A stretch of 32,000 nucleotides of DNA from positions 30,001 to 62,000 of the forward strand of contig CAVRAI010000013.1 of assembly GCA_963718915.1 (NCBI GenBank), written 5' to 3'. The translations under genes were made by a program, and so were the position numbers. Position 1 is the first letter of the stretch; every line of letters starts with the position of its first letter. The notes beneath the pieces were generated by a model. That model was not told the origin of the DNA. It worked only from the letters and a program-made list of their open reading frames with translations, and did no database searches. Below, one piece after another: positions 6,767-30,668 of this stretch. This DNA is from an uncultured Chloroflexia bacterium (GTDB lineage Bacteria; Chloroflexota; Ktedonobacteria; Ktedonobacterales; JADMIN01).

Positions 6767-7369
6767 ATGTGCGGCAGATATGAGATCGTCGACGGCAAAC
6801 AGATTTTCGTCCGTTTCGGAGTCGCCAACGCGATACCGGAGATGCTGGCGAATCTCGATGTGCGACCGACACAGCAGGTACCGGTGCTCCTCACCGATCA
6901 CGAATTACAGTTGATGAAATGGGGGCTGGCGCCGTCGTGGGCCAAGGATGAGTCGGTCGGACACAAAATGATCAACGCTCGCTCCGAAGGAATCGCGGAG
7001 AAGCCCTCGTTCAAGAGGCCGCTACGCACCCAGCGCTGTCTGCTGCCTGCCTCAGCGTTCTTCGAGTGGCAGGGGGTGAAGGGAGCCAAGGTTAAATACC
7101 GCATTGGACGGAAGGACGGGGAGATGTTCGGGCTGGCGGGTCTGTATGATGTGTGGAAGAGTCCCGGTGGCTACGAACTGACGACGTGTACGATCATCAC
7201 ATGCCAGCCGAATGCGGTGCTGGCCCCGATTCACAATCGGATGCCGGTGATCCTGCTGCCTGAGGATGAGGATGCCTGGCTCGACCCGGACATGACCGAG
7301 GTGGAGGCGATCACGAGCTATCTGCGGCCTTACCCTGATGAGCTGCTGGAGGCGGTTCGGGCGGCGTAG
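6767..7369 (+). CDS. SOS response-associated peptidase (SRAP / YedK / HMCES family, DUF159)
   Basis: Starts MCGRY, which is the catalytic Cys2 signature. Also has NARSE, RCLLPASAFFEW and IHNRMPVIL segments. GGAAGGAG lies 8 nt upstream. Confidence 0.9.
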   Translation: MCGRYEIVDGKQIFVRFGVANAIPEMLANLDVRPTQQVPVLLTDHELQLMKWGLAPSWAKDESVGHKMINARSEGIAEKPSFKRPLRTQRCLLPASAFFEWQGVKGAKVKYRIGRKDGEMFGLAGLYDVWKSPGGYELTTCTIITCQPNAVLAPIHNRMPVILLPEDEDAWLDPDMTEVEAITSYLRPYPDELLEAVRAA

Positions 7370-11145: not shown

Positions 11146-11634
11146 ATGCGGCAAGATGAACTGACGTTGACGCCGTTTTACCAGGGATGGGATACCTACC
11201 AAGCGGCGCTCGTTCGGGCGATTGCGCCCTTATCAGAGGAGCAGCTCGCGTTGCGCGCCGTCCCCTCGCTGCGCCGGGTGTGGCTGCTGGCGGCGCATAT
11301 CATCGGGTCGCGGGTGAGTAGCTTTCAGGACTCCATGGGAGAGGGAGATCCCGCCCTCGCCGCCCTCGAATCCTGGGATGCAGACGGCGCGCCACCGCGC
11401 ACCGCCGCCGAACTGGTTCAGGGATTGGAGGCGACGTGGCAGATGATGCGCGAGTGCCTCGACCACTGGACGCCAGACAATCTGGCCGACACCTTCGTCG
11501 AGCAGCAGGGCGAGCAGACCTACACCTATACGCGCCAGCGGATCATCTGGGGGATTCTCAAGCACGACCTGCACCACGGCGGCGAGCTGTTCCTGACGCT
11601 CGGCATGAATGGCCTGCCTACACCAGACGTGTAG
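11146..11634 (+). CDS. DinB family (DinB/YfiT-like four-helix bundle) protein
   Basis: 162 aa with the C-terminal HDLHHGGEL metal-binding signature of the DinB_2 superfamily. AGGAG lies 6 nt upstream. Confidence 0.85.
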   Translation: MRQDELTLTPFYQGWDTYQAALVRAIAPLSEEQLALRAVPSLRRVWLLAAHIIGSRVSSFQDSMGEGDPALAALESWDADGAPPRTAAELVQGLEATWQMMRECLDHWTPDNLADTFVEQQGEQTYTYTRQRIIWGILKHDLHHGGELFLTLGMNGLPTPDV

Positions 11635-11891
11635 CGATTGCCATCCAGATAGCCAGGATGACCTCTCCACCAGGACAAGCGCCTGCCTGACGACCGACGG
11701 TGACAAGGTAATGGGCGTCGCGCAAGGTGTGTCGCAGGTGGGCAGCGAGGGCTGGGGGGAGGGTCTGCGCGTTCATCACGGCTGTTTTGGCCCGTTCGGC
11801 TTTTGGCGCTTGGGGCGCTCAATGTTACCATGGCACAATGGGGTGGTAGACTGAACCCCTGGCGAATCGATTAGAGAGAGCAGCGATAGCA

Positions 11892-17546: not shown

Positions 17547-17960
17547 ATGCAGAAGTCCCATCGAGCACCAACACCGGACGCGATTGCGCCGGATGGCATT
17601 GCGATCCGCCATCTGATCGATGAGGCGCAAGGCGCAAAGAAGCTGAGTCTCGCCGAGGGGGCGCTCGGGCCGAATCAGCGCTCGGCTAAGGTCTACCATA
17701 CCACCTATGAGGAGATCTGGTACTTCCTTCAAGGAGAGGGCATCTTCCACCTGCATGTGCCAGGCATTGACGCTGAAGAGGCGACGCACGTGAGGCCTGG
17801 AGACGCGCTGCTCATCCCGCCCCACCATGGCTTCTGGGTGGAGAATACCGGCACGGACGAGCTGGTCGTCCTCCTGGCTGGTTCTCCGCCCTGGGGAGCT
17901 GGTCAGGGGGTCCACCCATGGCCGCCTTTGGGCCCGCCGGAAGGTGAGAGACCATGCTAG
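17547..17960 (+). CDS. cupin domain protein
   Basis: EIWYFLQGEG......VRPGDALLIPPHHGFWVENTG is a cupin_2-type motif pair. AGGAGG lies 7 nt upstream. The Pro/Gly-rich C-terminal tail abuts the rearranged region at about 17960-18170. Confidence 0.75.
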   Translation: MQKSHRAPTPDAIAPDGIAIRHLIDEAQGAKKLSLAEGALGPNQRSAKVYHTTYEEIWYFLQGEGIFHLHVPGIDAEEATHVRPGDALLIPPHHGFWVENTGTDELVVLLAGSPPWGAGQGVHPWPPLGPPEGERPC

Positions 17961-18068
17961 AAATTTCGAGGTGGTTCCAAGCAGGAACCAGGAGTCGCAC
18001 GTGCAAGGTCAGGTAGGGAGGAGGTTGGAGCGCGTTTAGGCGGAGTGGGTGTTGTCGTTCCGCTCCGG

Positions 18069-18166
18069 CCACGCCGATGAGTTGAAAGGCCCAGAGGGAG
18101 CGGTACCAGCGGACACGCTCCAGGCGACCGACGGCGACGAGGTAGTGGGTGGCGCGCAGGTCGTGG
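18069..18166 (-). pseudogene. about 100-bp fragment of a dnaE2 3' end
   Basis: It aligns to 24138-24250 of the intact dnaE2. Both encode YLVAVGRLERVRWYRSLWAFQLIGV. There are a few mismatches and one roughly 12-nt deletion, and no similarity beyond either end. Confidence 0.7.
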
Positions 18167-18445
18167 CGTGAAGGCGGCTTCGCCACGCTCGGCATACTCA
18201 TGTCGCCACCGGGCGAGGAGACTCTCGGACAACTGCTGTTCGCGGCACATCTGAGCGGGGCGCTTGGCCCCGTTCGCCAGTTGCCGAACCACCTCCAGTT
18301 TGAACTCGCGCGTAAACGTTCGTCCTGGCATGGCATTCCTCGCTTTCTCGGCTTTCTCGCCTGCGGTGTCTGTCGTCAGTCTACCGCAAGGTGATGGCTG
18401 AGTTGTTGCCTTGCCTCACTGGTCCGGGATTCGGGGTTCACTCCA
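18160..18445 (-). mobile_element. IS3-family insertion sequence remnant (left end plus the first ~58 codons of orfA)
   Basis: MPGRTFTREFKLEVVRQLANGAKRPAQMCREQQLSESLLARWRHEYAERGEAAF matches the HTH N-terminus of IS3/IS911-type OrfA. About 110 nt upstream, TGGAGTGAACCCCGAATCCCGGACC (reverse complement of 18421-18445) looks like an IS3-family terminal inverted repeat starting with TG. There is no orfB, no frameshift site and no right end. Confidence 0.65.
18342..18359. repeat. 9-bp tandem duplication (gctttctcg x2) just upstream of the IS3 orfA remnant ATG
   Basis: Perfect copies at 18342-18350 and 18351-18359. Confidence 0.85.
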
Positions 18446-23062: not shown

Positions 23063-24004
23063 GTGAACACGACCATCAACACGACAAGCCACGGTGAAGA
23101 GCAGAAGAAACCCAACGTGGGCTTCATCGGCATGGGGCACATGGGCAGCCGCCTAGCCGCGCGCCTCCTCGACGCAGGCTACCCCCTCACGGTCTACGAC
23201 CGCACGCCCGAGCACACGCAGCCGCTTGCCCAGCGCGGCGCTAAGACCGCAGCCACCCCCGCCGAGATAGCGTCGGTGTCCACCATTGTCTTATCCAGCC
23301 TTGCCGACGATGCCGCCGTGGAAGCGGTGCTGCTCGGCCCAGAGGGCGCCGTTGCGGCGGCTCGCCCCGGCACAACCTTCATCGAGATGAGCACCATCCT
23401 GCCGGAGACGTCGCGCAAGCTCGCTGCGGCCGCACAAGAACATGGGCTAACCGCGTTGGACGCCGCCATATCCGGCAGCACACCCCAGGCGGAGGCGGGT
23501 ACGCTCGTCGTGCTCGTCGGTGGGGAGCAGGCGGCCTACGACCGCTGCCTGCCGGTCCTCTCGGCGCTTGGCCAACGCGTGTTCTACATGGGCCAAAGCG
23601 GGATGGGCACAACGATGAAGCTGGTCGTCAACACGCTGCTGGGCGTGGACATCCAGGTACTGGCGGAGGCCGTCTCCCTAGGCGAAAAGGCGGGCCTGGA
23701 GAAAGGACGTCTTCTCGACGTGCTCGGCCAGACGGCCGTGATTTCGCCCCGTCAGAAACTCGCCATGGAGAACGTCCGGCGGGAACACTATCCCGTCACC
23801 TTCGCACTCGAGCTCATGCACAAGGACTTCGGGCTGATCTTGCGTGAGGCGGAGGCGCTGCGTGTCGCGATGCCGGTGACGGCGGCTGCCGAGCAGGTCG
23901 CCACCGTCGAGCTGTCCAGCCGGGCGGGTGGTGATATCACAGAAACGATCCGCTGGATGGAGGAGCTGGCGGGGGTGCTAGCACCGGAAGGGACGACGAG
24001 GTAA
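23063..24004 (+). CDS. NAD(P)-dependent oxidoreductase, beta-hydroxyacid (3-hydroxyisobutyrate / 6-phosphogluconate) dehydrogenase family
   Basis: VGFIGMGHMGSRLAARLL dinucleotide-binding motif, then GTTMKLVVNTL and a downstream helical domain. The apparent start is a GTG at 23063. Confidence 0.85.
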   Translation: MNTTINTTSHGEEQKKPNVGFIGMGHMGSRLAARLLDAGYPLTVYDRTPEHTQPLAQRGAKTAATPAEIASVSTIVLSSLADDAAVEAVLLGPEGAVAAARPGTTFIEMSTILPETSRKLAAAAQEHGLTALDAAISGSTPQAEAGTLVVLVGGEQAAYDRCLPVLSALGQRVFYMGQSGMGTTMKLVVNTLLGVDIQVLAEAVSLGEKAGLEKGRLLDVLGQTAVISPRQKLAMENVRREHYPVTFALELMHKDFGLILREAEALRVAMPVTAAAEQVATVELSSRAGGDITETIRWMEELAGVLAPEGTTR

Positions 24005-24052
24005 GCTAATCAATCAATGGACATGCGGCCGCAAACACGCCTGGCGTACTAA

Positions 24053-27000
24053 TTAAGTGTTTGAAAGGCCTTCTTTGCTAGGTTTGTGCCAGGCGAGTGA
24101 GCAGAAGCCGGATGCCGAATGTGCGGATGCATTCTTTCGCACGCCGATGAGCTGGAAGGCCCAGAGGGAGCGGTACCAGCGGACGCGCTCCAGGCGACCA
24201 ACGGCGACCAGGTAGCGGGCGTCACGCAGGGTGCGGCGCAGGTCGTGGGCGAGGGCAGGCGCCATGGCCAGGGGGAGGCGTCCCGTCTCATCCTCCAGGA
24301 CTACGAAACCGACGCCTTTGGCGGTTGGTGGGCGTTGGGCGGAGATGGGCCAGCCCGCCACACGCACAACCCGCCCCTCCGCCACGTGTGCCAGATCGGA
24401 GATGCGCAACACCCCCCGGCGATCCAGTTGCGGGCGGTAATGGCGCATCGGATGTGGGCGTGTGGAGAGGCCGAGCAGCTGGTAGTCCAGCGCGTCACGC
24501 TCAAAGGCCGTGAGGGCTGGCAGGGTGGGGACATCCGCGAGCGCATCGAGTGGCATCTCCCAGGTGAGGGTCAGTTGTTGCGGATGTTCGGCAGTTGTAT
24601 CTGCCATGGCCGTGGCATTGCTGCGGCGTCGCTTCGCGCCTTTGGGATGGGGGTCTACCAGTGGCCAAAGTTCGCGGAGTTGCCAGAGGCGTTGCCGCCG
24701 GTCCATGCGCGGGGCGAGGCCGTCGCAGGCGCCTGACCAGACGAGCGCTTCAGCGGCGTCACGGGTGAGTCCAGCGGGACGGAGGCGGACGAGCAGATCC
24801 CAGAGCGAGGTAAAGGGGCGCTCGTGGAGGTGGCCGGACTCGTCGAGGGTACGACGTTCCCACAGGATGGCGCGCGCGAGATCCTCGCCGATCTGGCTGA
24901 CCTGACGCAGCCCAACCCGAATGCCCCAGCGCCTCCCACCGGGCGCATGTCCACTCCCTACGCTGCCAGCGGGTTCCACCGAGAAGCGGTCCTCACTGGC
25001 GTTCACATGCACGGGGAGAACGGGGATGCGGAGGCGTTTCGCCTCCTCCAGCACCACATGCGGCGGGAAGTAGCCCGCGGGTTGGGCGGAGAGGAAGGCG
25101 GCGAGATAGTGGGCGGGGTAGTGCGCCTTGAGCCAGGCGGTCTGGTAGATGGTGCGGGCAAACTCGGCGGCGTGGCTTTTGCAGAATCCGTAGCCAACGA
25201 AGGCGGAGACGGCCTCGAAGACACGATCCGCCGCCTCGTGTGTCTCGCCACGGGCCAGCGCGCCCCCGACGAAGCGCTGGCGCATCGCCTCCATCTCGCG
25301 GCGGCTGCGCTGGTGGGACATGGCGCGGCGGAAGCCATCCGCGTCGGCGTAGCTCAGCCCAGCGAAGCGGTGGGCAATTTCAAGGATCTGCTCCTGGAAG
25401 AGCAGGATGCCCTCGCTCTCGGCCAGGATGGGGCCGAGGACGGGGTGGGCCGTCCAGAAGTCGTCGGTTGGCGTGCCCTTCCAGGGGGTCTGCACGGCAT
25501 CTCGCTGTTGCCGAATATAGCGCGCCGCCTGTGCGCCCTGCGCAGATTGCTTGGAGTCTTGGGCCTGCTTGTCCAGGCGGCGTTCGATGTAGGGATGGAC
25601 GAAGCCGCCCTGGATGGGGCCGGGGCGAAAGAGCGCGGTCTGGACGATGAGATCGTTGAAGGTGGTGGGCTGAGTCTGGGCGAGCAGATGCCATTGGCCG
25701 GGACTCTCGATCTGGAAGACCGCCAGCGTCTGGCCGCTGCGGATGAGGGCCATCGTGCGCGGATCAGGGGGCGTGGTGGGCAAATGGTCGATGTCGGGCC
25801 GCTCGCCAGTGGTTCGCTCGATAAGGGTGAGCGCCTCCTCGACAGCGCCGAGGGTGCGCAGGCCCAGCAGGTCAAACTTGATGAGGCCGAGACGTTCGAC
25901 GTCGTCTTTATCGATCTCCAAGGCGCGCACGCCATTGGCTGAGACGCGCACGGGCAGCAAGGTGGCCAGCGGCTCACGGGTGAGCACCATGCCGCCGTTA
26001 TGGAGGCTGAGGTGGCGTGGCAAGCCGAGGAGCTTCGGAGCGATCTGTAGCAGGAGGGGCAGCCGTTCCAGGCAGCGAGCGCGGACAGATGCGTTGGGGA
26101 GCGTAGAGAATGTGGCGATAACCTGGCGTAGCTCGCTTTCGTGGCTGAGCAACTCCTCGGCGTCGGCGTGGTGTGAGAGCCGTTTGGTCATGCGGTTGAC
26201 CAGTTCCAGGGGGTAGCTGAGGGCTTTGGCGGCGTCGCGCAGGGCACTCCTGGCCCGGTAGGTGATGACATTGGCGACCATAGCGGCGTGGGCCTCGCTG
26301 TAGGTGCGCTCGACGTAGCGGATCAGTTCGTCGCGGCGGTCGGACTGGACATCGACATCGATATCGGGCATGCCGCCGCGGTCAGGGTTGAGGAAACGCT
26401 CGAAGAGGAGCTTATGGTGGATCGGGTCAACGCCAGTGATGCCCAGGCAGTAGGCGACCAGACTATTGGCGGCGCTGCCCCGACCGCTGACGCGGATGCC
26501 CATGGCGCGGGCGGCGTGCATGATGTCGTGGACGCAGAGGAAGAATTCTTCAAGCTGCAATTGCGCGATAACGGACAGTTCGTGGTCGAGTTGTGTGCGC
26601 TGGGGGCTGCCGGGGAGCAGCGCCTCAGGTAGATTGGCATAGCGGGTTGCGAGGCCGGACTCGCTGAGGGCGCGCAGATGGGTAGTGGGTGTTGCGCCCT
26701 CTGGCAGGGAGACCTGGGGCGCGGTGCAGGCGCCTTTGAGCAGAGAGAGGTGACAGCGCGTTGCGATCTCGCCGCTGGCGCGCAGGGCGGCGCGGCCTTG
26801 GGGAACGCGCGCAAAGAGGGATGCCAGCGCGCGCGCGGACTTGAGGTGCGCCTCGTCGTTGCGGGGGCGTTCGGCGTGGGGCTGATCCACGGTGAGGCCG
26901 AGGCGCGTACAGGTCATGAGGTCGTAGAGGGCGCAGTCGGCGCGGGATGCGTAGTGCACCCCATTGGTGGCGACGTAGCGGAGACCTGCCTCCTCGGCGA

Positions 27001-27646
27001 GCTCGGCAAGTTGATGGAGCAGGATCAGGGTATCGGGCAGCTTGTGGTGTTGCAGCTCGACGAAAATCCGGTCAGGCCCGAAGGCGTCATAGTAGCGACG
27101 CGCGGCCTCCATGGCGGCCTGGCGCCTGCCCGCGAGCAGGAGTCGCATCAGGGTTCCGTCACGTCCGCCGGTGAGCAGGATCAGACCGTCTGGTTCCGCG
27201 GCCAAGTCTCGCCAGGGGATGACTGGGGCATCGGGGTGGGCGAGGTTGGCGTCGGTGAGCAGGCGGCAGAGTCGAGCATAACCGGTGGCGTTCTCGGCCA
27301 GTGCGACGGGGTGGGTGGGGAGAGGCGAGATGCCGAAGATGGGTTCGGCAACGGCTAGCTCTACGCCGATGATGGGCTGAATGGCGTATGAGGCGCAGGC
27401 GGTTTGGAAGCGGACGACGCCAGCGAGGGTCATGTGGTCGGTGAGGGCGAGGCTGCGCATGCCGAGCGCAGCTGCCCGCGCGACCAACGCCTCAGGCGAG
27501 GAACTGCCACGGAGGAAGCTGAACGCGCTGGCCAGGTGCAGCTCGACGTAGGCAGTGTGGGCGTTACGGTTGGTGGCAGGATGCTGGTCGGCATGATGTG
27601 TAGCGAGCGTATTAGGCGTATCACTCAGGTCAGTCAGGTCAGTCAT
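24053..27646 (-). CDS. dnaE2: error-prone DNA polymerase III alpha-type subunit DnaE2
   Basis: PHP domain YVELHLASAFSFLRGSS...LALTDH, polymerase core segments (PDIDVDV, GLIKFDLLGL, FQIESPG, YGFCKSHA) and an OB-fold region. I place the start at the ATG at 27644-27646 (MTDLTDL), which overlaps the upstream small ORF by 8 nt. The track start 27841 lies inside that ORF. Confidence 0.9.
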   Translation of the reverse strand: MTDLTDLSDTPNTLATHHADQHPATNRNAHTAYVELHLASAFSFLRGSSSPEALVARAAALGMRSLALTDHMTLAGVVRFQTACASYAIQPIIGVELAVAEPIFGISPLPTHPVALAENATGYARLCRLLTDANLAHPDAPVIPWRDLAAEPDGLILLTGGRDGTLMRLLLAGRRQAAMEAARRYYDAFGPDRIFVELQHHKLPDTLILLHQLAELAEEAGLRYVATNGVHYASRADCALYDLMTCTRLGLTVDQPHAERPRNDEAHLKSARALASLFARVPQGRAALRASGEIATRCHLSLLKGACTAPQVSLPEGATPTTHLRALSESGLATRYANLPEALLPGSPQRTQLDHELSVIAQLQLEEFFLCVHDIMHAARAMGIRVSGRGSAANSLVAYCLGITGVDPIHHKLLFERFLNPDRGGMPDIDVDVQSDRRDELIRYVERTYSEAHAAMVANVITYRARSALRDAAKALSYPLELVNRMTKRLSHHADAEELLSHESELRQVIATFSTLPNASVRARCLERLPLLLQIAPKLLGLPRHLSLHNGGMVLTREPLATLLPVRVSANGVRALEIDKDDVERLGLIKFDLLGLRTLGAVEEALTLIERTTGERPDIDHLPTTPPDPRTMALIRSGQTLAVFQIESPGQWHLLAQTQPTTFNDLIVQTALFRPGPIQGGFVHPYIERRLDKQAQDSKQSAQGAQAARYIRQQRDAVQTPWKGTPTDDFWTAHPVLGPILAESEGILLFQEQILEIAHRFAGLSYADADGFRRAMSHQRSRREMEAMRQRFVGGALARGETHEAADRVFEAVSAFVGYGFCKSHAAEFARTIYQTAWLKAHYPAHYLAAFLSAQPAGYFPPHVVLEEAKRLRIPVLPVHVNASEDRFSVEPAGSVGSGHAPGGRRWGIRVGLRQVSQIGEDLARAILWERRTLDESGHLHERPFTSLWDLLVRLRPAGLTRDAAEALVWSGACDGLAPRMDRRQRLWQLRELWPLVDPHPKGAKRRRSNATAMADTTAEHPQQLTLTWEMPLDALADVPTLPALTAFERDALDYQLLGLSTRPHPMRHYRPQLDRRGVLRISDLAHVAEGRVVRVAGWPISAQRPPTAKGVGFVVLEDETGRLPLAMAPALAHDLRRTLRDARYLVAVGRLERVRWYRSLWAFQLIGVRKNASAHSASGFCSLAWHKPSKEGLSNT
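27625..27645. repeat. 9-bp tandem repeat at the small ORF stop / dnaE2 start overlap
   Basis: tcaggtcag x2 plus tca on the + strand. The minus strand reads ATG ACTGACCTG ACTGACCTG, encoding MTDLTDL, and includes the TGA of the upstream ORF. Confidence 0.85.
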
Positions 27647-27941
27647 AGACACGTTCCAGGATCCACACTTCGCCGATAGCCTCGTAGTAGATGTCGCAGA
27701 CGAGGTCTTCATGCGCGGAGGCGCAGCGTAGTCGGTAGTAGGTGCGCTCACTGCGGCCCTTGTGATCCTTGCGATCCTTGCCCCCTGCGCCACGTACGCT
27801 GTGCTGCTCCCACCAGCGATCCATGAGGCGCCACGGCTCATTGACCTCCAGCACGCGGTAGGTGAGGCCGCGCCAGTGGATGGTGGCGGGCTTGCCGTCG
27901 GCGAGTGTCACCCTGATGGGGTGGTAATAGACGTGGGTCAT
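27639..27941 (-). CDS. small conserved-looking protein of unknown function between imuB and dnaE2
   Basis: 100 aa from the ATG at 27941, with GAGGTGAT upstream. MTHVYYHPIRVTLADGKPATIHWRGLTYRVLEVNEPWRLMDRWWE...RTYYRLRC..EDLVCDIYYEAIGEVWILERVYD has a beta-rich, Trp/Tyr-rich pattern. It starts 30 nt after the imuB stop, and its TGA overlaps the dnaE2 ATG (TATGACTGA). It may belong to a DUF family associated with Y-family polymerase / dnaE2 loci, but I cannot verify that. Confidence 0.65.
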   Translation of the reverse strand: MTHVYYHPIRVTLADGKPATIHWRGLTYRVLEVNEPWRLMDRWWEQHSVRGAGGKDRKDHKGRSERTYYRLRCASAHEDLVCDIYYEAIGEVWILERVYD

Positions 27942-27970
27942 GGATATATCACCTCGTATCGCACCGTCTC

Positions 27971-29296
27971 TTACCACCGATGGATGCCATGGGGGATCTC
28001 GTCCGAAGCATCATCGGTGTCAGAGTCGGCGACATCGGCGGCGGGGCGCGCAGGATGCCCCAGTCCTTCAGCCACATCAGCCAGGTCGGCCACATCGGCG
28101 CCCAGGGGTGCGAGACGGGAGCGGTCCTGGTCGAAGATAGCGTCGGGGGCGGTGAGCAGGCTCTGAAACAGGAGGGGCTTGCCGTGGCGACGGGCGAGGA
28201 GGTCGGCAAGCTCCTGAGTGGCGGTGATGCGGCGGGCGCGTTGGGGCCAGAAGGCATGTTGCGCGGGATAGCGCGGAGTGAGATGAGAGACGATGAGATG
28301 TAGATCCTCGATGGCTTCATGGGCATGAACGCGGGATTGAAAGAGCGGGGCAAGCATGCGTTCCAGCGTCTCCGTCAGGGCATGGCCACCGGAGAGGGGT
28401 TGTGGGAGTGTGCGCGTGATCGTGGTGATGCGCTCGGCATTGCCCTGGGAGTTGGCCGTTGATCCACCCTCCCAGTAGAGACGCAGTTCCAGCGTGTGTC
28501 CGTGGAGGCCACGGCGCGCGAGACGAGATGCGACCTCACAGGAGAAGGGCGCCAGGCCGAGCAGCAGACGGTCAGGGGTGACGGGGGCCGTCAGGCGGAG
28601 GCGGAAACGCAGATGTAGTGGCGCAGCCGTGGGCTGGAGGGACAGGGGATCCTCACCGCGAGCGATGGTGGCGAGCAGGACGCCGAGGTGGGCGCCGAAC
28701 TGGCGACGGAGATCGTTTTCGTCGAGCCGCGTGAGGTGCAGGAGGGTACGGGCGCCATAGTCTTCCAGCCGGGAGACGGCCTGGGCGAGCGTGTGAGGAG
28801 TAAAGATGGTCGGGTTGGCGAATTGGAGATGTTCGAGCGCGGCGATGGGCAGGCGGCGTAGCAGGTCGGCGGTCTGCTCACGGGTCAGAACGGTCACTGG
28901 CGCAGGTGTGCGCAGCAGGTCTACGAGGGCGAGCTGGGCGAGGATGCCGCTGGGGGCAATGGCGGCGCGTAGCGTGATCCGCTGGTTGGCCAGGCGGGTG
29001 ATGAGCGCCTGGACGACGGCGACGGCCTCGGTGTCGGTGCAGGGTCCGAGGTCAAGGAGGGCGCTGTCGTCTCCGAACCGCTGGAGGTATGGCGTCAGCT
29101 GATAGCAGGCGGTGAGCCACGCGGGCCATTGATCGTCGCCGACGTGTTTTGTGTGCGAGAGGCAGCGGACCCAGGCCAGGTGGCGGGAGACACCAGCCTC
29201 TGATGAGAGAGACGAGAGAGACGAGAGAGACGAGAGAGATGCTTGGGAAGATAGAGCAGCCAGGAAATCAGGCTTTCTCGTAGGCATTGTCGGCAC
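27971..29296 (-). CDS. imuB: ImuB-like catalytically inactive Y-family DNA polymerase
   Basis: Y-family thumb/HhH and little-finger patterns are present: AAIAPSGILAQLA, LLRRLPIAALE, LRRQFGAHLGVLLATIARGEDP. The acidic catalytic DxD/E palm residues are absent. The track ORF begins with a TTG at 29377, which is the -35 of the predicted promoter. I place the start at the GTG at 29296 (GGGGAAGGGGAG 9 nt upstream) or the ATG at 29287. Confidence 0.75.
   Translation of the reverse strand: MPTMPTRKPDFLAALSSQASLSSLSSLSSLSSEAGVSRHLAWVRCLSHTKHVGDDQWPAWLTACYQLTPYLQRFGDDSALLDLGPCTDTEAVAVVQALITRLANQRITLRAAIAPSGILAQLALVDLLRTPAPVTVLTREQTADLLRRLPIAALEHLQFANPTIFTPHTLAQAVSRLEDYGARTLLHLTRLDENDLRRQFGAHLGVLLATIARGEDPLSLQPTAAPLHLRFRLRLTAPVTPDRLLLGLAPFSCEVASRLARRGLHGHTLELRLYWEGGSTANSQGNAERITTITRTLPQPLSGGHALTETLERMLAPLFQSRVHAHEAIEDLHLIVSHLTPRYPAQHAFWPQRARRITATQELADLLARRHGKPLLFQSLLTAPDAIFDQDRSRLAPLGADVADLADVAEGLGHPARPAADVADSDTDDASDEIPHGIHRW
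29205..29240. repeat. 9-bp tandem repeat x4 in the imuB N-terminal region
   Basis: gagagagac x3 plus gagagagat. It encodes SLSSLSSLSSLSS on the minus strand. Confidence 0.9.
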
Positions 29297-29331
29297 AGGC
29301 AGCGTCTCCCCTTCCCCATATCGTTGAACAA

Positions 29332-29343
29332 GAACATCCGTTC
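29332..29343 (-). promoter_or_regulatory. LexA-type SOS box (Cheo-box core GAAC-N4-GTTC)
   Basis: The + strand reads a GAAC atcc GTTC c at 29331-29344, a perfect palindromic core. It lies 6 nt downstream of the predicted -10 of the imuB operon promoter. Confidence 0.6.
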
Positions 29344-29349
29344 CACTAG

Positions 29350-29377
29350 AGTATCGGCGCGGGGGGATGGCGGTCAA
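29350..29377 (-). promoter_or_regulatory. sigma70-like promoter of the imuB - small ORF - dnaE2 operon
   Basis: The minus strand reads TTGACC (29377-29372), a 16-nt spacer, then GATACT (29355-29350). Confidence 0.5.
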
Positions 29378-29380
29378 GCG

Positions 29381-29400
29381 ACAGAGACGGACAGAGACGG
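29381..29400. repeat. 10-bp tandem duplication (acagagacgg x2) immediately upstream of the imuB promoter -35
   Basis: Perfect copies at 29381-29390 and 29391-29400. Confidence 0.85.
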
Positions 29401-29751
29401 CGACTGCGTTGTTGGAAGCGGAAAGTCGTGGGCTGGACTGTCGAGAGATGTAGGGAGCTGGGACTTGCTGAGGATGATAGGAGCTAGCGAGGGGAGACCG
29501 AGGAATTGAGCGCCGTCACTTAGAGTGTGGAGCATGGCAGAGTTACAACTCTCTGAAGTCTTTTTGCCGTCGAGGGTCGCAAACGTTGACTGGTTCTGTA
29601 GAATGATGCTGACGAACAAGCAGCGATGAGTGTTGAGATGATGCGACGCATGCGATGCACATGCAGTGATGCACAGGCAGTGGTGAGATTCGCCAGGCCG
29701 TTTATGACGCTTGACGTGGCATCCTCGTGGGTTGAAGTGAGTCTCGTGCGA

Positions 29752-29770
29752 GAGGAGAGAGGAGAGAGGA
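29752..29770. repeat. 7-bp purine repeat (gaggaga x2.7) forming the ribosome-binding region of the 29772 gene
   Basis: The sequence is gaggaga gaggaga gaggat, directly followed by the ATG at 29772. Confidence 0.8.
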
Positions 29771-29771
29771 T

Positions 29772-30668
29772 ATGGGCAGGGAGCAGGCGTATTCCTCAGA
29801 GTTGTCGCAGTACCTTGATGGCGCCATTGCCGATGCTGAGAAACAGCGCGCAAGCGCCACCCAACCGACATCTGCCCAAGCTGGCGGAGTTGTCGGGGAA
29901 GCGGTCACAATGACCGTATGGGACTCGATGCGAGCAGCACTGAGTCGCGCTGTGCGGCGTTCCCTCCTGAGGACAATTGTCGCACTCTTTCCGCTCCTCG
30001 CGCTTGTGGCCAGTACAGCATTGCAGGCATTTGGGCAGGGCGCGCTGTGGACTATCCCGGCGCGTGTGGTCCTGACCGGACTGACGCTCTTCCTGCTCTG
30101 GCATGCCTGGCAAGTCGTACGTTACGTGCGGGGAAGAATGCCCCAGCGCCTCCTGCGACGGCGTGTGCAGCCTGGTCGTTACTATGAACCACCTACCGCG
30201 TCGGAGATGTTCATGCCGCTCATCGTTGGAGTTCTTGACCTGCCTGCATTGCTGAGTCTCTCCTTCGCTGTGAGTCAGCCACATCTCGTGCTCGCCGCTC
30301 TGATAGCACTTCCGGTAGTGGTCTTGGTCCTTGTTACAGTGGTCATCGCCGCCGTGTCGGGTTTCGGCGCTGTTGGGGCGGTTGGAGGGCTCGATCAGGT
30401 GTCACATGCGCCAGCTCGACCTGTGTCGGTGGCCTCGTTGGCTGCGTTGGACGAGCGGATTACGCGTCTCTCGCAGATACGCGAATGGCTAGGTGACGAC
30501 ACGCTCCGAGCGATGGTGGACGATGTGATTGGGCAACAGGTGAGGTCAGCGGCGAGACGACAGGTGACGTTTTCGTTTCTCATTGGGGTTATTTCGTTGG
30601 TGTCCGGATGGTTGCTCTCTGCGGTGAGTCCTGTCGCGACGCTGACCAACCTTTTTCCGGGACGTTGA
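29772..30668 (+). CDS. hypothetical multi-pass membrane protein
   Basis: 298-aa ORF preceded by a GAGGAGA x3 tract. It has four or more hydrophobic segments (IVALFPLLALVASTALQAF, VVLTGLTLFLLW, LVLAALIALPVVVLVLVTVVIAAV, FSFLIGVISLVSGWLL). I recognise no family. It is divergent from imuB. Confidence 0.6.
   Translation: MGREQAYSSELSQYLDGAIADAEKQRASATQPTSAQAGGVVGEAVTMTVWDSMRAALSRAVRRSLLRTIVALFPLLALVASTALQAFGQGALWTIPARVVLTGLTLFLLWHAWQVVRYVRGRMPQRLLRRRVQPGRYYEPPTASEMFMPLIVGVLDLPALLSLSFAVSQPHLVLAALIALPVVVLVLVTVVIAAVSGFGAVGAVGGLDQVSHAPARPVSVASLAALDERITRLSQIREWLGDDTLRAMVDDVIGQQVRSAARRQVTFSFLIGVISLVSGWLLSAVSPVATLTNLFPGR

Follow-up and report, generated by a model that had tools for sequence, protein, structure and literature searches.

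Gene content and layout of the cassette

We analysed a 32-kb stretch of a Ktedonobacterales (Chloroflexota) genome, hereafter the window, in which positions 24053-29377 of the minus strand hold a cassette built around dnaE2, the gene of an error-prone C-family DNA polymerase. As listed in Table 1, three co-oriented genes follow one another there behind one promoter and one LexA-type box: the gene of an ImuB-like protein, iPolY (also ImuY), a small gene, imuB-C, and dnaE2. An earlier note on this DNA, made from the sequence alone, had described an SOS-type DnaE2 mutasome cassette whose operon begins with the ImuB-like gene, with promoter and LexA-type box upstream at 29332-29377, and all of these elements were found on the minus strand as described. 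The gene identities, the split-ImuB relation set out below, the loss of catalytic residues, the gene order, the translational coupling and the conservation of the LexA box were all computed in this work.

Table 1. Features of the dnaE2 cassette, with positions in the window
Feature	Position	Strand	Details
iPolY/ImuY gene (inactive Y-family polymerase homolog by sequence and model; ImuB minus C-terminal domain)	27971..29287	(-)	438 aa
imuB-C (standalone ImuB C-terminal domain protein, Pfam DUF6504)	27639..27941	(-)	100 aa
dnaE2 (error-prone C-family DNA polymerase)	24053..27646	(-)	1197 aa
-35-like hexamer TTGACC	29372..29377	(-)	CTTGAC invariant in 6 related loci
-10-like hexamer GATACT	29350..29355	(-)	16-nt spacer; kept as GATAYT in related loci
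LexA (Cheo-type) box GAACGGATGTTC	29332..29343	(-)	6 nt downstream of -10; candidate operator
Candidate beta-clamp-binding motif PAQHAFW of iPolY (Qxx[LF]W type)	28247..28267	(-)	from alignment only
RecA-NT-like motif TATQELADLLARRHGKPLLFQ of iPolY	28163..28225	(-)	C-terminal to little finger; from alignment only
Acidic, disordered C-terminal extension of iPolY	27974..28093	(-)	residues 399-438, pLDDT <50; lineage-specific
Ribosome-binding site GAGGTG of imuB-C	27950..27955	(-)	8 nt before ATG, within the 29-nt spacer after the iPolY stop; read directly from the sequence

The mechanical open reading frame (ORF) of iPolY covers 27971..29377 (468 aa) with a TTG start at 29377, and the gene had at first been taken to begin there. 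Alignment with 21 homologs, which begin MPxxxPAS, moved the real start to the ATG at 29287 (MPTRKP...); the gene thus begins downstream of its promoter and operator. The imuB-C gene has its own ATG, with an in-frame stop 12 codons upstream of it. Its stop and the dnaE2 start share an 8-nt overlap (ATGACTGA), and the identical overlap was found in four related loci (L001, L010, L011, and L013), in agreement with the view of the small protein as a conserved, translationally coupled accessory subunit. A search for related loci with a narrower alignment returned Ktedonobacterales and Chloroflexia metagenome-assembled genomes (MAGs) only. Domain searches revealed no RecA/ImuA/SulA-like or LexA gene among the remaining ORFs of the window, and the absence of an imuA-type gene from operon and window, claimed previously, was thus borne out.

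Relation of the two upstream proteins to ImuB, and the DnaE2 partner

The 100-aa protein, which the earlier note had called unknown and unrelated, is a member of a recognizable family. It matches Pfam DUF6504 with 33.2 bits (E 6.4e-8; gathering cut-off 24.2), and NCBIfam gave it no name. We found 57 close homologs, one of them source-labelled Ktedonobacterales, and an exhaustive profile search yielded 406 cluster representatives of the family; the best 150 of these are nearly all standalone proteins of 80-140 aa ending W-x-L-x-R-V-x-D. For comparison with fused ImuB proteins we used canonical cassettes (imuA-type gene, fused imuB, and dnaE2) from plasmids of Paracoccus, Rhodanobacter, Komagataeibacter, and Kitasatospora, with Thermomicrobium roseum (RecA-like gene, fused ImuB, and dnaE2) as the fifth source. 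DUF6504 matched residues 431-501 of the 506-aa ImuB encoded in the Paracoccus imuA-imuB-dnaE2 operon (E 4.4e-4), and a 322-aa reduced ImuB (P0148) carries IMS_C together with a C-terminal DUF6504 (E 1.5e-10). The C-termini of the fused ImuBs share with the small protein the signature WRG...WW...R.Y...W.hHG.F. When 63 standalone proteins were compared with the five fused C-termini, hhalign returned a match at 96.8% (E 2.1e-10, 72 columns), with both sides of the alignment ending at the protein C-terminus.

The ImuB-C domain was defined by Aravind et al. (2013). Three published ImuB-C sequences were scored against the hidden Markov model of the family and gave 43.5 (Sphaerobacter ACZ39476), 42.2 (Dehalogenimonas ADJ25744), and 30.5 bits (ACV58046). 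The ImuB-C family is marked by a conserved C-terminal Trp, conserved basic residues, and a mainly beta structure. Within the 63 sequences R66 and W93 never vary, and W23, W37, W43, and W44 hardly do. The AlphaFold2 (AF2) model of the small protein is all-beta with seven strands and a disordered, basic, Gly-rich loop at 41-64; its predicted local distance difference test score (pLDDT) is 85.4. When PDB sequences were searched with the ImuB-C profile, only chance-level ETS-domain matches came up (E >=0.05), and Foldseek found no match of the model to the PDB at E <=0.001; this agrees with the published description of ImuB-C as a novel beta-barrel (PMC12926913). On the strength of these profile comparisons, Pfam DUF6504 is the ImuB-C domain and the small gene is the ImuB C-terminal domain encoded separately. 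As our literature search found no paper that mentions "DUF6504," this annotation link is useful and worth adding to databases.

Outside the related loci, we examined five distant DUF6504 neighborhoods, three of which gave usable context. In L026:3-5542, genes for a LonB-like protease and DnaE2 flank ImuB-C, and there is no Y-family gene. An actinobacterial locus (L025:5001-5291) has a solo DUF6504/ImuB-C copy with no polymerase nearby. The third gene has an unannotated 304-aa gene on one side and, on the other, a 1003-aa gene that is truncated by the end of the contig and probably encodes DnaE2.

For iPolY, Pfam recognized the little finger IMS_C (E 4.7e-6) and, weakly, the thumb HhH, with no match for the palm (IMS); the NCBIfam matches were to DinB alone and far below threshold. 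Profile alignment by hhalign to the canonical ImuBs gave 99.3% (E 1.4e-20) over ImuB columns 88-400 of 499. The match spans the palm remnant, thumb, little finger, clamp-motif position, and RecA-NT motif, and it stops exactly before ImuB-C. Since the alignment ends where ImuB-C would begin, iPolY and the small protein together correspond to a split ImuB.

The AF2 model of iPolY (pLDDT 79.5; residues 1-29 and 399-438 disordered) matched Y-family polymerases in the PDB, including Rev1, Dpo4, DinB, Pol kappa, and Pol eta, with E values of 1e-16 to 1e-12. In the alignment to DNA polymerase IV (7yll) siDEAyLD pairs with gdDSAlLD, so that Glu is replaced by Ser in the window protein, and in the iPolY family xxALLDLG stands in place of the catalytic SxDEAxLD. 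Across the homologs the catalytic Asp position is occupied by D, N, R, or H and the Glu position by S, A, G, or T. In strand 1 (RHLAWVRCL) no acidic position is conserved, and the fingers have shrunk to about 13 residues. Judged from these alignments and the model, iPolY is catalytically inactive, the Asp/Asp/Glu set being lost. In the disordered N-terminus, a tandem TCTCTCTCG repeat at about 29205-29240 encodes (SLS)n, and its length varies among homologs.

Two candidate interaction motifs could be placed in iPolY. PAQHAFW falls on the "RQxS(L)" position of ImuB in the profile alignment, and its P341, Q343, and W347 are invariant or nearly so in 34 homologs, from which we infer that it binds the beta clamp. 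The RecA-NT-like motif (ELADLLARRHGKPLLF) aligns with the RecA-NT motif region of ImuB, and its core residues A361, L364, and R367 are invariant in iPolY homologs. It resembles the Ktedonobacter RecA N-terminus (QALQQIERRFGKGAIMKL; QIERRFGKGAIMKL), as well as the RecA N-termini and iPolY motifs, including those of Dehalogenimonas, tabulated in the supplement of PMC6511836. Beyond this motif, the acidic extension contains ADVAD-like repeats and ends PHGIHRW (family consensus PHGIHWW), with H436, W437, and W438 conserved in 34 homologs. The extension (about 45 residues) is absent from the published Dehalogenimonas and Sphaerobacter iPolY tails.

For the product of dnaE2, the best NCBIfam match was "error-prone DNA polymerase" (NF004225, E 2.9e-261). 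Pfam domains PHP, DNA_pol3_alpha, finger, and HHH_6 were detected, and the catalytic motifs are intact (PDIDVD at 427 and KFDLLGL at 590). In a neighbor-joining tree this DnaE2 groups with the DnaE2s of the Abditibacteriota and Deinococcus split systems, apart from the five DnaE2s linked to ImuA plus fused ImuB. The grouping suggests membership of the DnaE2X clade (PMC12926913), as far as a crude tree of 12 sequences, with no bootstrap and no reference DnaE2X/DnaE2A/DnaE2B set, can indicate.

Stray copies of the dnaE2 3′ coding end were also seen in the window: one of 99 nt at 18070-18168 (88% identity), encoding ...YLVAVGRLERVRWYRSLWAFQLIGV, and another of 65 nt at 11691-11755 (78% identity). 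The first is abutted by an ORF at 17957-18331 (-) with an N-terminus that looks like that of an IS3-type transposase OrfA. Short DnaE2 C-terminal matches occur also 1-2 kb downstream of dnaE2 in L010, L013, and L014. The stray copies suggest that further copies of the cassette were rearranged or decayed in the past.

Promoter, LexA box, and conservation among related loci

The putative TTGACC-16-GATACT promoter is the sole sigma-70-like site in 23800-29900. The conserved GAAC-N4-GTTC box overlaps this predicted promoter, and GAACGGATGTTC is the only instance of the pattern in the window, against a chance expectation of 0.37. In Firmicutes and Actinobacteria this motif is defined as the LexA site (PMC3323433). 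The box is kept perfectly at the same position upstream of the iPolY gene in L010, L011, L013, L014, and L012, and the far more distant L001 has TAGAACTAAAGTTCTA there. Given this conservation at one position in related loci, the predicted SOS (LexA) control of the cassette is well supported in silico. Dehalococcoides, another member of the Chloroflexi, reportedly also uses GAAC-N4-GTTC.

Upstream of the -35 hexamer, a block of about 140 nt (29378-29510, minus strand) is conserved in the window, L010, L013, L014, and L012, and partly in L011; DNA further upstream is unalignable among the orthologous loci. The block contains a tandem GTCTCTGTC(C)GTCTCTGTC (GYCTCTGTC repeats) that abuts the -35, is unique in the window, and has more copies in L012; CTCGACA and CACGACTTTC are also present. 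No Rfam match was obtained in 23900-30000. A second regulator, other than LexA, may bind in this block. Upstream of the promoter we detected no conserved coding sequence in Pfam, NCBIfam, or the alignment of related loci. The ORF at 29374..29871, considered and rejected as a cryptic imuA, had no Pfam or NCBIfam match and was not conserved in relatives; because DNA beyond about 29510 is unalignable among them, it is not a conserved gene. The earlier note had described it as not protein-like.

The order iPolY, ImuB-C, DnaE2 was found in L001, L010 (on the same contig as L015), L011, L013, L014, L017, L018, and L019, all from Ktedonobacterales or Chloroflexia MAGs. A plasmid of Deinococcus sp. 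QL22 carries lexA-PolY-DUF6504-dnaE2, and an Abditibacteriota plasmid has the same triad, also preceded by lexA. The split is thus conserved in at least ten loci of three phyla. Flanking genes differ in every locus, hence only the triad is conserved. As the same split recurs in independent loci, it is ancient and conserved and not the product of a frameshift. A RecA-like gene was not found within 5-7 kb of the cassette in any of 10 related loci; apart from the lexA genes of Deinococcus and Abditibacteriota, RecA-, ImuA-, and LexA-like neighbors were not found in the related loci.

Some copies of the cassette are in decay. In L012 the whole cassette is decayed, with iPolY and DnaE2 broken into many frames. 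Cassette fragments lie next to insertion sequence (IS) genes in L016:4259-4914 and L020:6001-6246, the ImuB-C fragment of L020 adjoining an IstB (IS21) remnant. Two related MAGs carry two cassette copies each.

Comparison with known mutasomes and alternative readings

Taken together, the data make it highly probable that the cassette encodes, in one operon repressed by LexA, a translesion mutasome with a split ImuB, of the iPolY(ImuY)-ImuB-C-DnaE2 type. In the undamaged cell, LexA bound to the GAAC-N4-GTTC box, close behind the -10, would block transcription; upon DNA damage, RecA-stimulated self-cleavage of LexA would free the promoter. One mRNA would then give three proteins, the last two translationally coupled. 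In the predicted complex, iPolY would serve as a dead, N-terminally reduced Y-family scaffold that has kept thumb and little finger along with a clamp-type QxxFW and a RecA-NT-like motif, the small protein would be the ImuB-C beta-barrel component, and DnaE2, as the only active polymerase, would carry out error-prone lesion bypass. The cell's own RecA would join via the RecA-NT motif in place of ImuA. That the proteins form a complex, that the clamp and RecA are bound, and that damage induces mutagenesis is proposed here by analogy with the systems in the literature.

The earlier note had suggested a variant architecture; it is not new and has already been described (PMC3765255, PMC6511836, PMC8072749, PMC12926913). 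Timinskas and Venclovas (2019) reported iPolY->ImuB-C->DnaE2 operons in Kyrpidia, Deinococcus, Dehalogenimonas, and others, in genomes with no imuA anywhere, and proposed that RecA binds at the RecA-NT motif instead (PMC6511836). The type was later named DnaE2X-iPolY-ImuBC-RecA and the complex modelled with AlphaFold, with ImuB-C as the main contact to the PHP domain of DnaE2; iPolY and ImuB-C together were interpreted as a split ImuB that may be ancestral to ImuA-ImuB-DnaE2 (NAR 2026; PMC12926913). Two Chloroflexi, Sphaerobacter thermophilus and Dehalogenimonas lykanthroporepellens, are among the published members (PMC6511836, PMC12926913). According to the review PMC8072749, Deinococcus deserti has a lexA-imuY-(80-aa gene)-dnaE2 operon under RecA/LexA control (2009 work), its UV mutagenesis requires ImuY, DnaE2, and RecA, its genome is without imuA, and the 80-aa protein was later recognized as ImuB-C.

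Every testable defining feature of the DnaE2X-iPolY-ImuBC-RecA type is present at our locus, which shares with the Kyrpidia tusciae operons the defining composition and order and a RecA-NT motif on an inactive PolY; published ImuB-C proteins of that type match the profile of the window family. In contrast, the iPolY of the window continues for about 45 aa more beyond its RecA-NT motif. The Deinococcus system is likewise made of an inactive Y-family homolog, a standalone ImuB-C (about 80-100 aa), and DnaE2, in the same order and with no imuA, and the small protein of Deinococcus sp. QL22 is a DUF6504 protein like that of the window. The Deinococcus system is under SOS (RecA/LexA) control, which is predicted here from the LexA box. 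The window operon differs from that of Deinococcus in having only a LexA box and no lexA, a more reduced Y-family protein (no Pfam IMS palm match vs. E 3e-5 in Deinococcus), an extra acidic tail ending PHGIHWW in the family consensus, and a DnaE2 of about 36% identity. Moreover, the Deinococcus system has genetic evidence, whereas the window cassette is known from sequence alone.

Canonical ImuA(ImuA')-ImuB-DnaE2 systems (Caulobacter, Pseudomonas, Mycobacterium tuberculosis) resemble the locus in the dead Y-family scaffold with clamp and RecA-NT motifs, the ImuB-C barrel, the DnaE2 catalytic subunit, and SOS control (predicted here), and canonical ImuB aligns end to end with iPolY plus ImuB-C. 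They differ from it in that the locus has no ImuA/ImuA' gene, has ImuB in two polypeptides, and presumably has RecA at the position of ImuA. A looser analogy can be drawn with Escherichia coli Pol V (UmuD'2C-RecA-ATP), which also combines an SOS-induced Y-family subunit bearing a RecA-binding motif with a small beta-rich accessory protein (PMC6511836). Yet Pol V has no DnaE2 and its Y-family subunit is itself the active polymerase, and UmuD' has an SH3-like core, unlike the novel beta-barrel reported for ImuB-C (PMC12926913).

The published data sets list no Ktedonobacteria member among the Kyrpidia-type operons, and the sole Ktedonobacteria genome listed, Ktedonosporobacter rubrisoli, apparently has no DnaE2 in its supplement row. 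The locus is thus a further example of the catalogued imuA-less split-ImuB layout, from a lineage absent in the published tables, and extends the known range of the cassette to Ktedonobacterales. As a discovery it carries little weight, such mutasomes being already catalogued, with genetic support in Deinococcus. On the broader questions, the role of standalone ImuB-C and whether RecA truly replaces ImuA, the locus brings us no closer than the Deinococcus systems.

Several observations weigh against our assignment. The clamp and RecA-NT motifs were both assigned by alignment, and the absence of imuA was established within the 32-kb window rather than genome-wide. The operon does not include lexA, unlike in Deinococcus, Dehalogenimonas, and Abditibacteriota. 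A lone GAAC-N4-GTTC per 32 kb is by itself not significant, at least one being present in 32 of 100 shuffles; the weight of the box comes from its positional conservation. The NCBIfam score of DnaE2 (869.9) is slightly under the cut-off of 939. In the literature searched, no experimental role for standalone ImuB-C was found for any organism. Finally, T. roseum, from the wider Chloroflexota/Thermomicrobiota, has a RecA-like gene and fused ImuB beside dnaE2.

The last observation would also fit a dispersed ImuA-ImuB-DnaE2 system, in which the cassette is served by a canonical ImuA or ImuA' whose gene lies at another site in the genome. Cassette genes are indeed dispersed in some bacteria (PMC8072749), and the sequence examined here is the 32-kb window. 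However, imuA is missing from all genomes with iPolY-ImuB-C-DnaE2 operons analysed in PMC6511836 and from D. deserti as described in the review cited above, and the surroundings of the ten related loci were also free of RecA-like genes over 5-7 kb. We therefore consider a distant ImuA improbable.

The decayed copies in related genomes (the broken L012 and the fragments by IS genes in L016 and L020) and the two stray dnaE2 ends in the window raise the question whether the cassette itself is a decaying or silent remnant without current function. All three of its ORFs are intact, though, DnaE2 retains its catalytic motifs, and the promoter, LexA box, ribosome-binding site, and 8-nt overlap are shared with orthologs of 57-85% protein identity, which leaves this explanation with very little chance.

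Following the earlier note, one could instead read the small protein as an unrelated, novel adaptor that replaces ImuA in a new type of mutasome. This seemed plausible from the lack of imuA in operon and window, the tight coupling of the small gene to dnaE2, and the lack of an NCBIfam name. It is contradicted by the matches to DUF6504 and to fused-ImuB C-termini, by the scores of the published ImuB-Cs, and by an all-beta model with no resemblance to the RecA/ImuA fold; moreover, the architecture is already published, and the candidate stand-in for ImuA in the papers is RecA, bound via the RecA-NT motif of the Y-family partner, and not the small protein; the RecA-NT motif of iPolY points to RecA here as well (PMC6511836). 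We regard this explanation as very improbable.

The note had itself named a further alternative, a known C-terminal domain of ImuB split off by a sequencing frameshift, and in substance the first half of it came true, because the small gene is the known ImuB C-terminal domain. A sequencing or assembly artefact is nevertheless next to impossible: the ORFs do lie side by side in different frames and add up to one ImuB, but between them lie a 29-nt spacer with a stop, the GAGGTG site, and a dedicated ATG, with the additional stop 12 codons upstream in the imuB-C frame, iPolY has a conserved C-terminal tail (PHGIHWW) of its own, the same split occurs in independent assemblies of at least eight Ktedonobacterales loci and of the Deinococcus and Abditibacteriota plasmids, and nearly all of the best 150 of the 406 family representatives stand alone at 80-140 aa.

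Within the split-ImuB mutasome reading we also considered that the Ktedonobacterales version has an extra layer lacking in the published split systems, formed by the iPolY tail and the upstream block of about 140 nt. This is doubtful. The tail is reminiscent of SSB-type acidic tails with an aromatic tip, and by that analogy the acidic extension with its PHGIHWW end could recruit a further partner, or dock on ImuB-C or DnaE2.

Two further genes of the window have names linked to DNA damage. An SRAP gene (SOS-response-associated peptidase, YedK/HMCES family) lies at 6767-7369 (+); its product starts MCGR and matches Pfam with E 5e-62, and no LexA box was found upstream of it. In L001 an SRAP gene is located directly upstream of the cassette, and SRAP fragments were seen downstream in L012. 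At 11146-11634 (+) there is a gene of the DinB_2/DinB superfamily (damage-inducible, mycothiol-S-transferase-like), which is unrelated to Pol IV despite its name.

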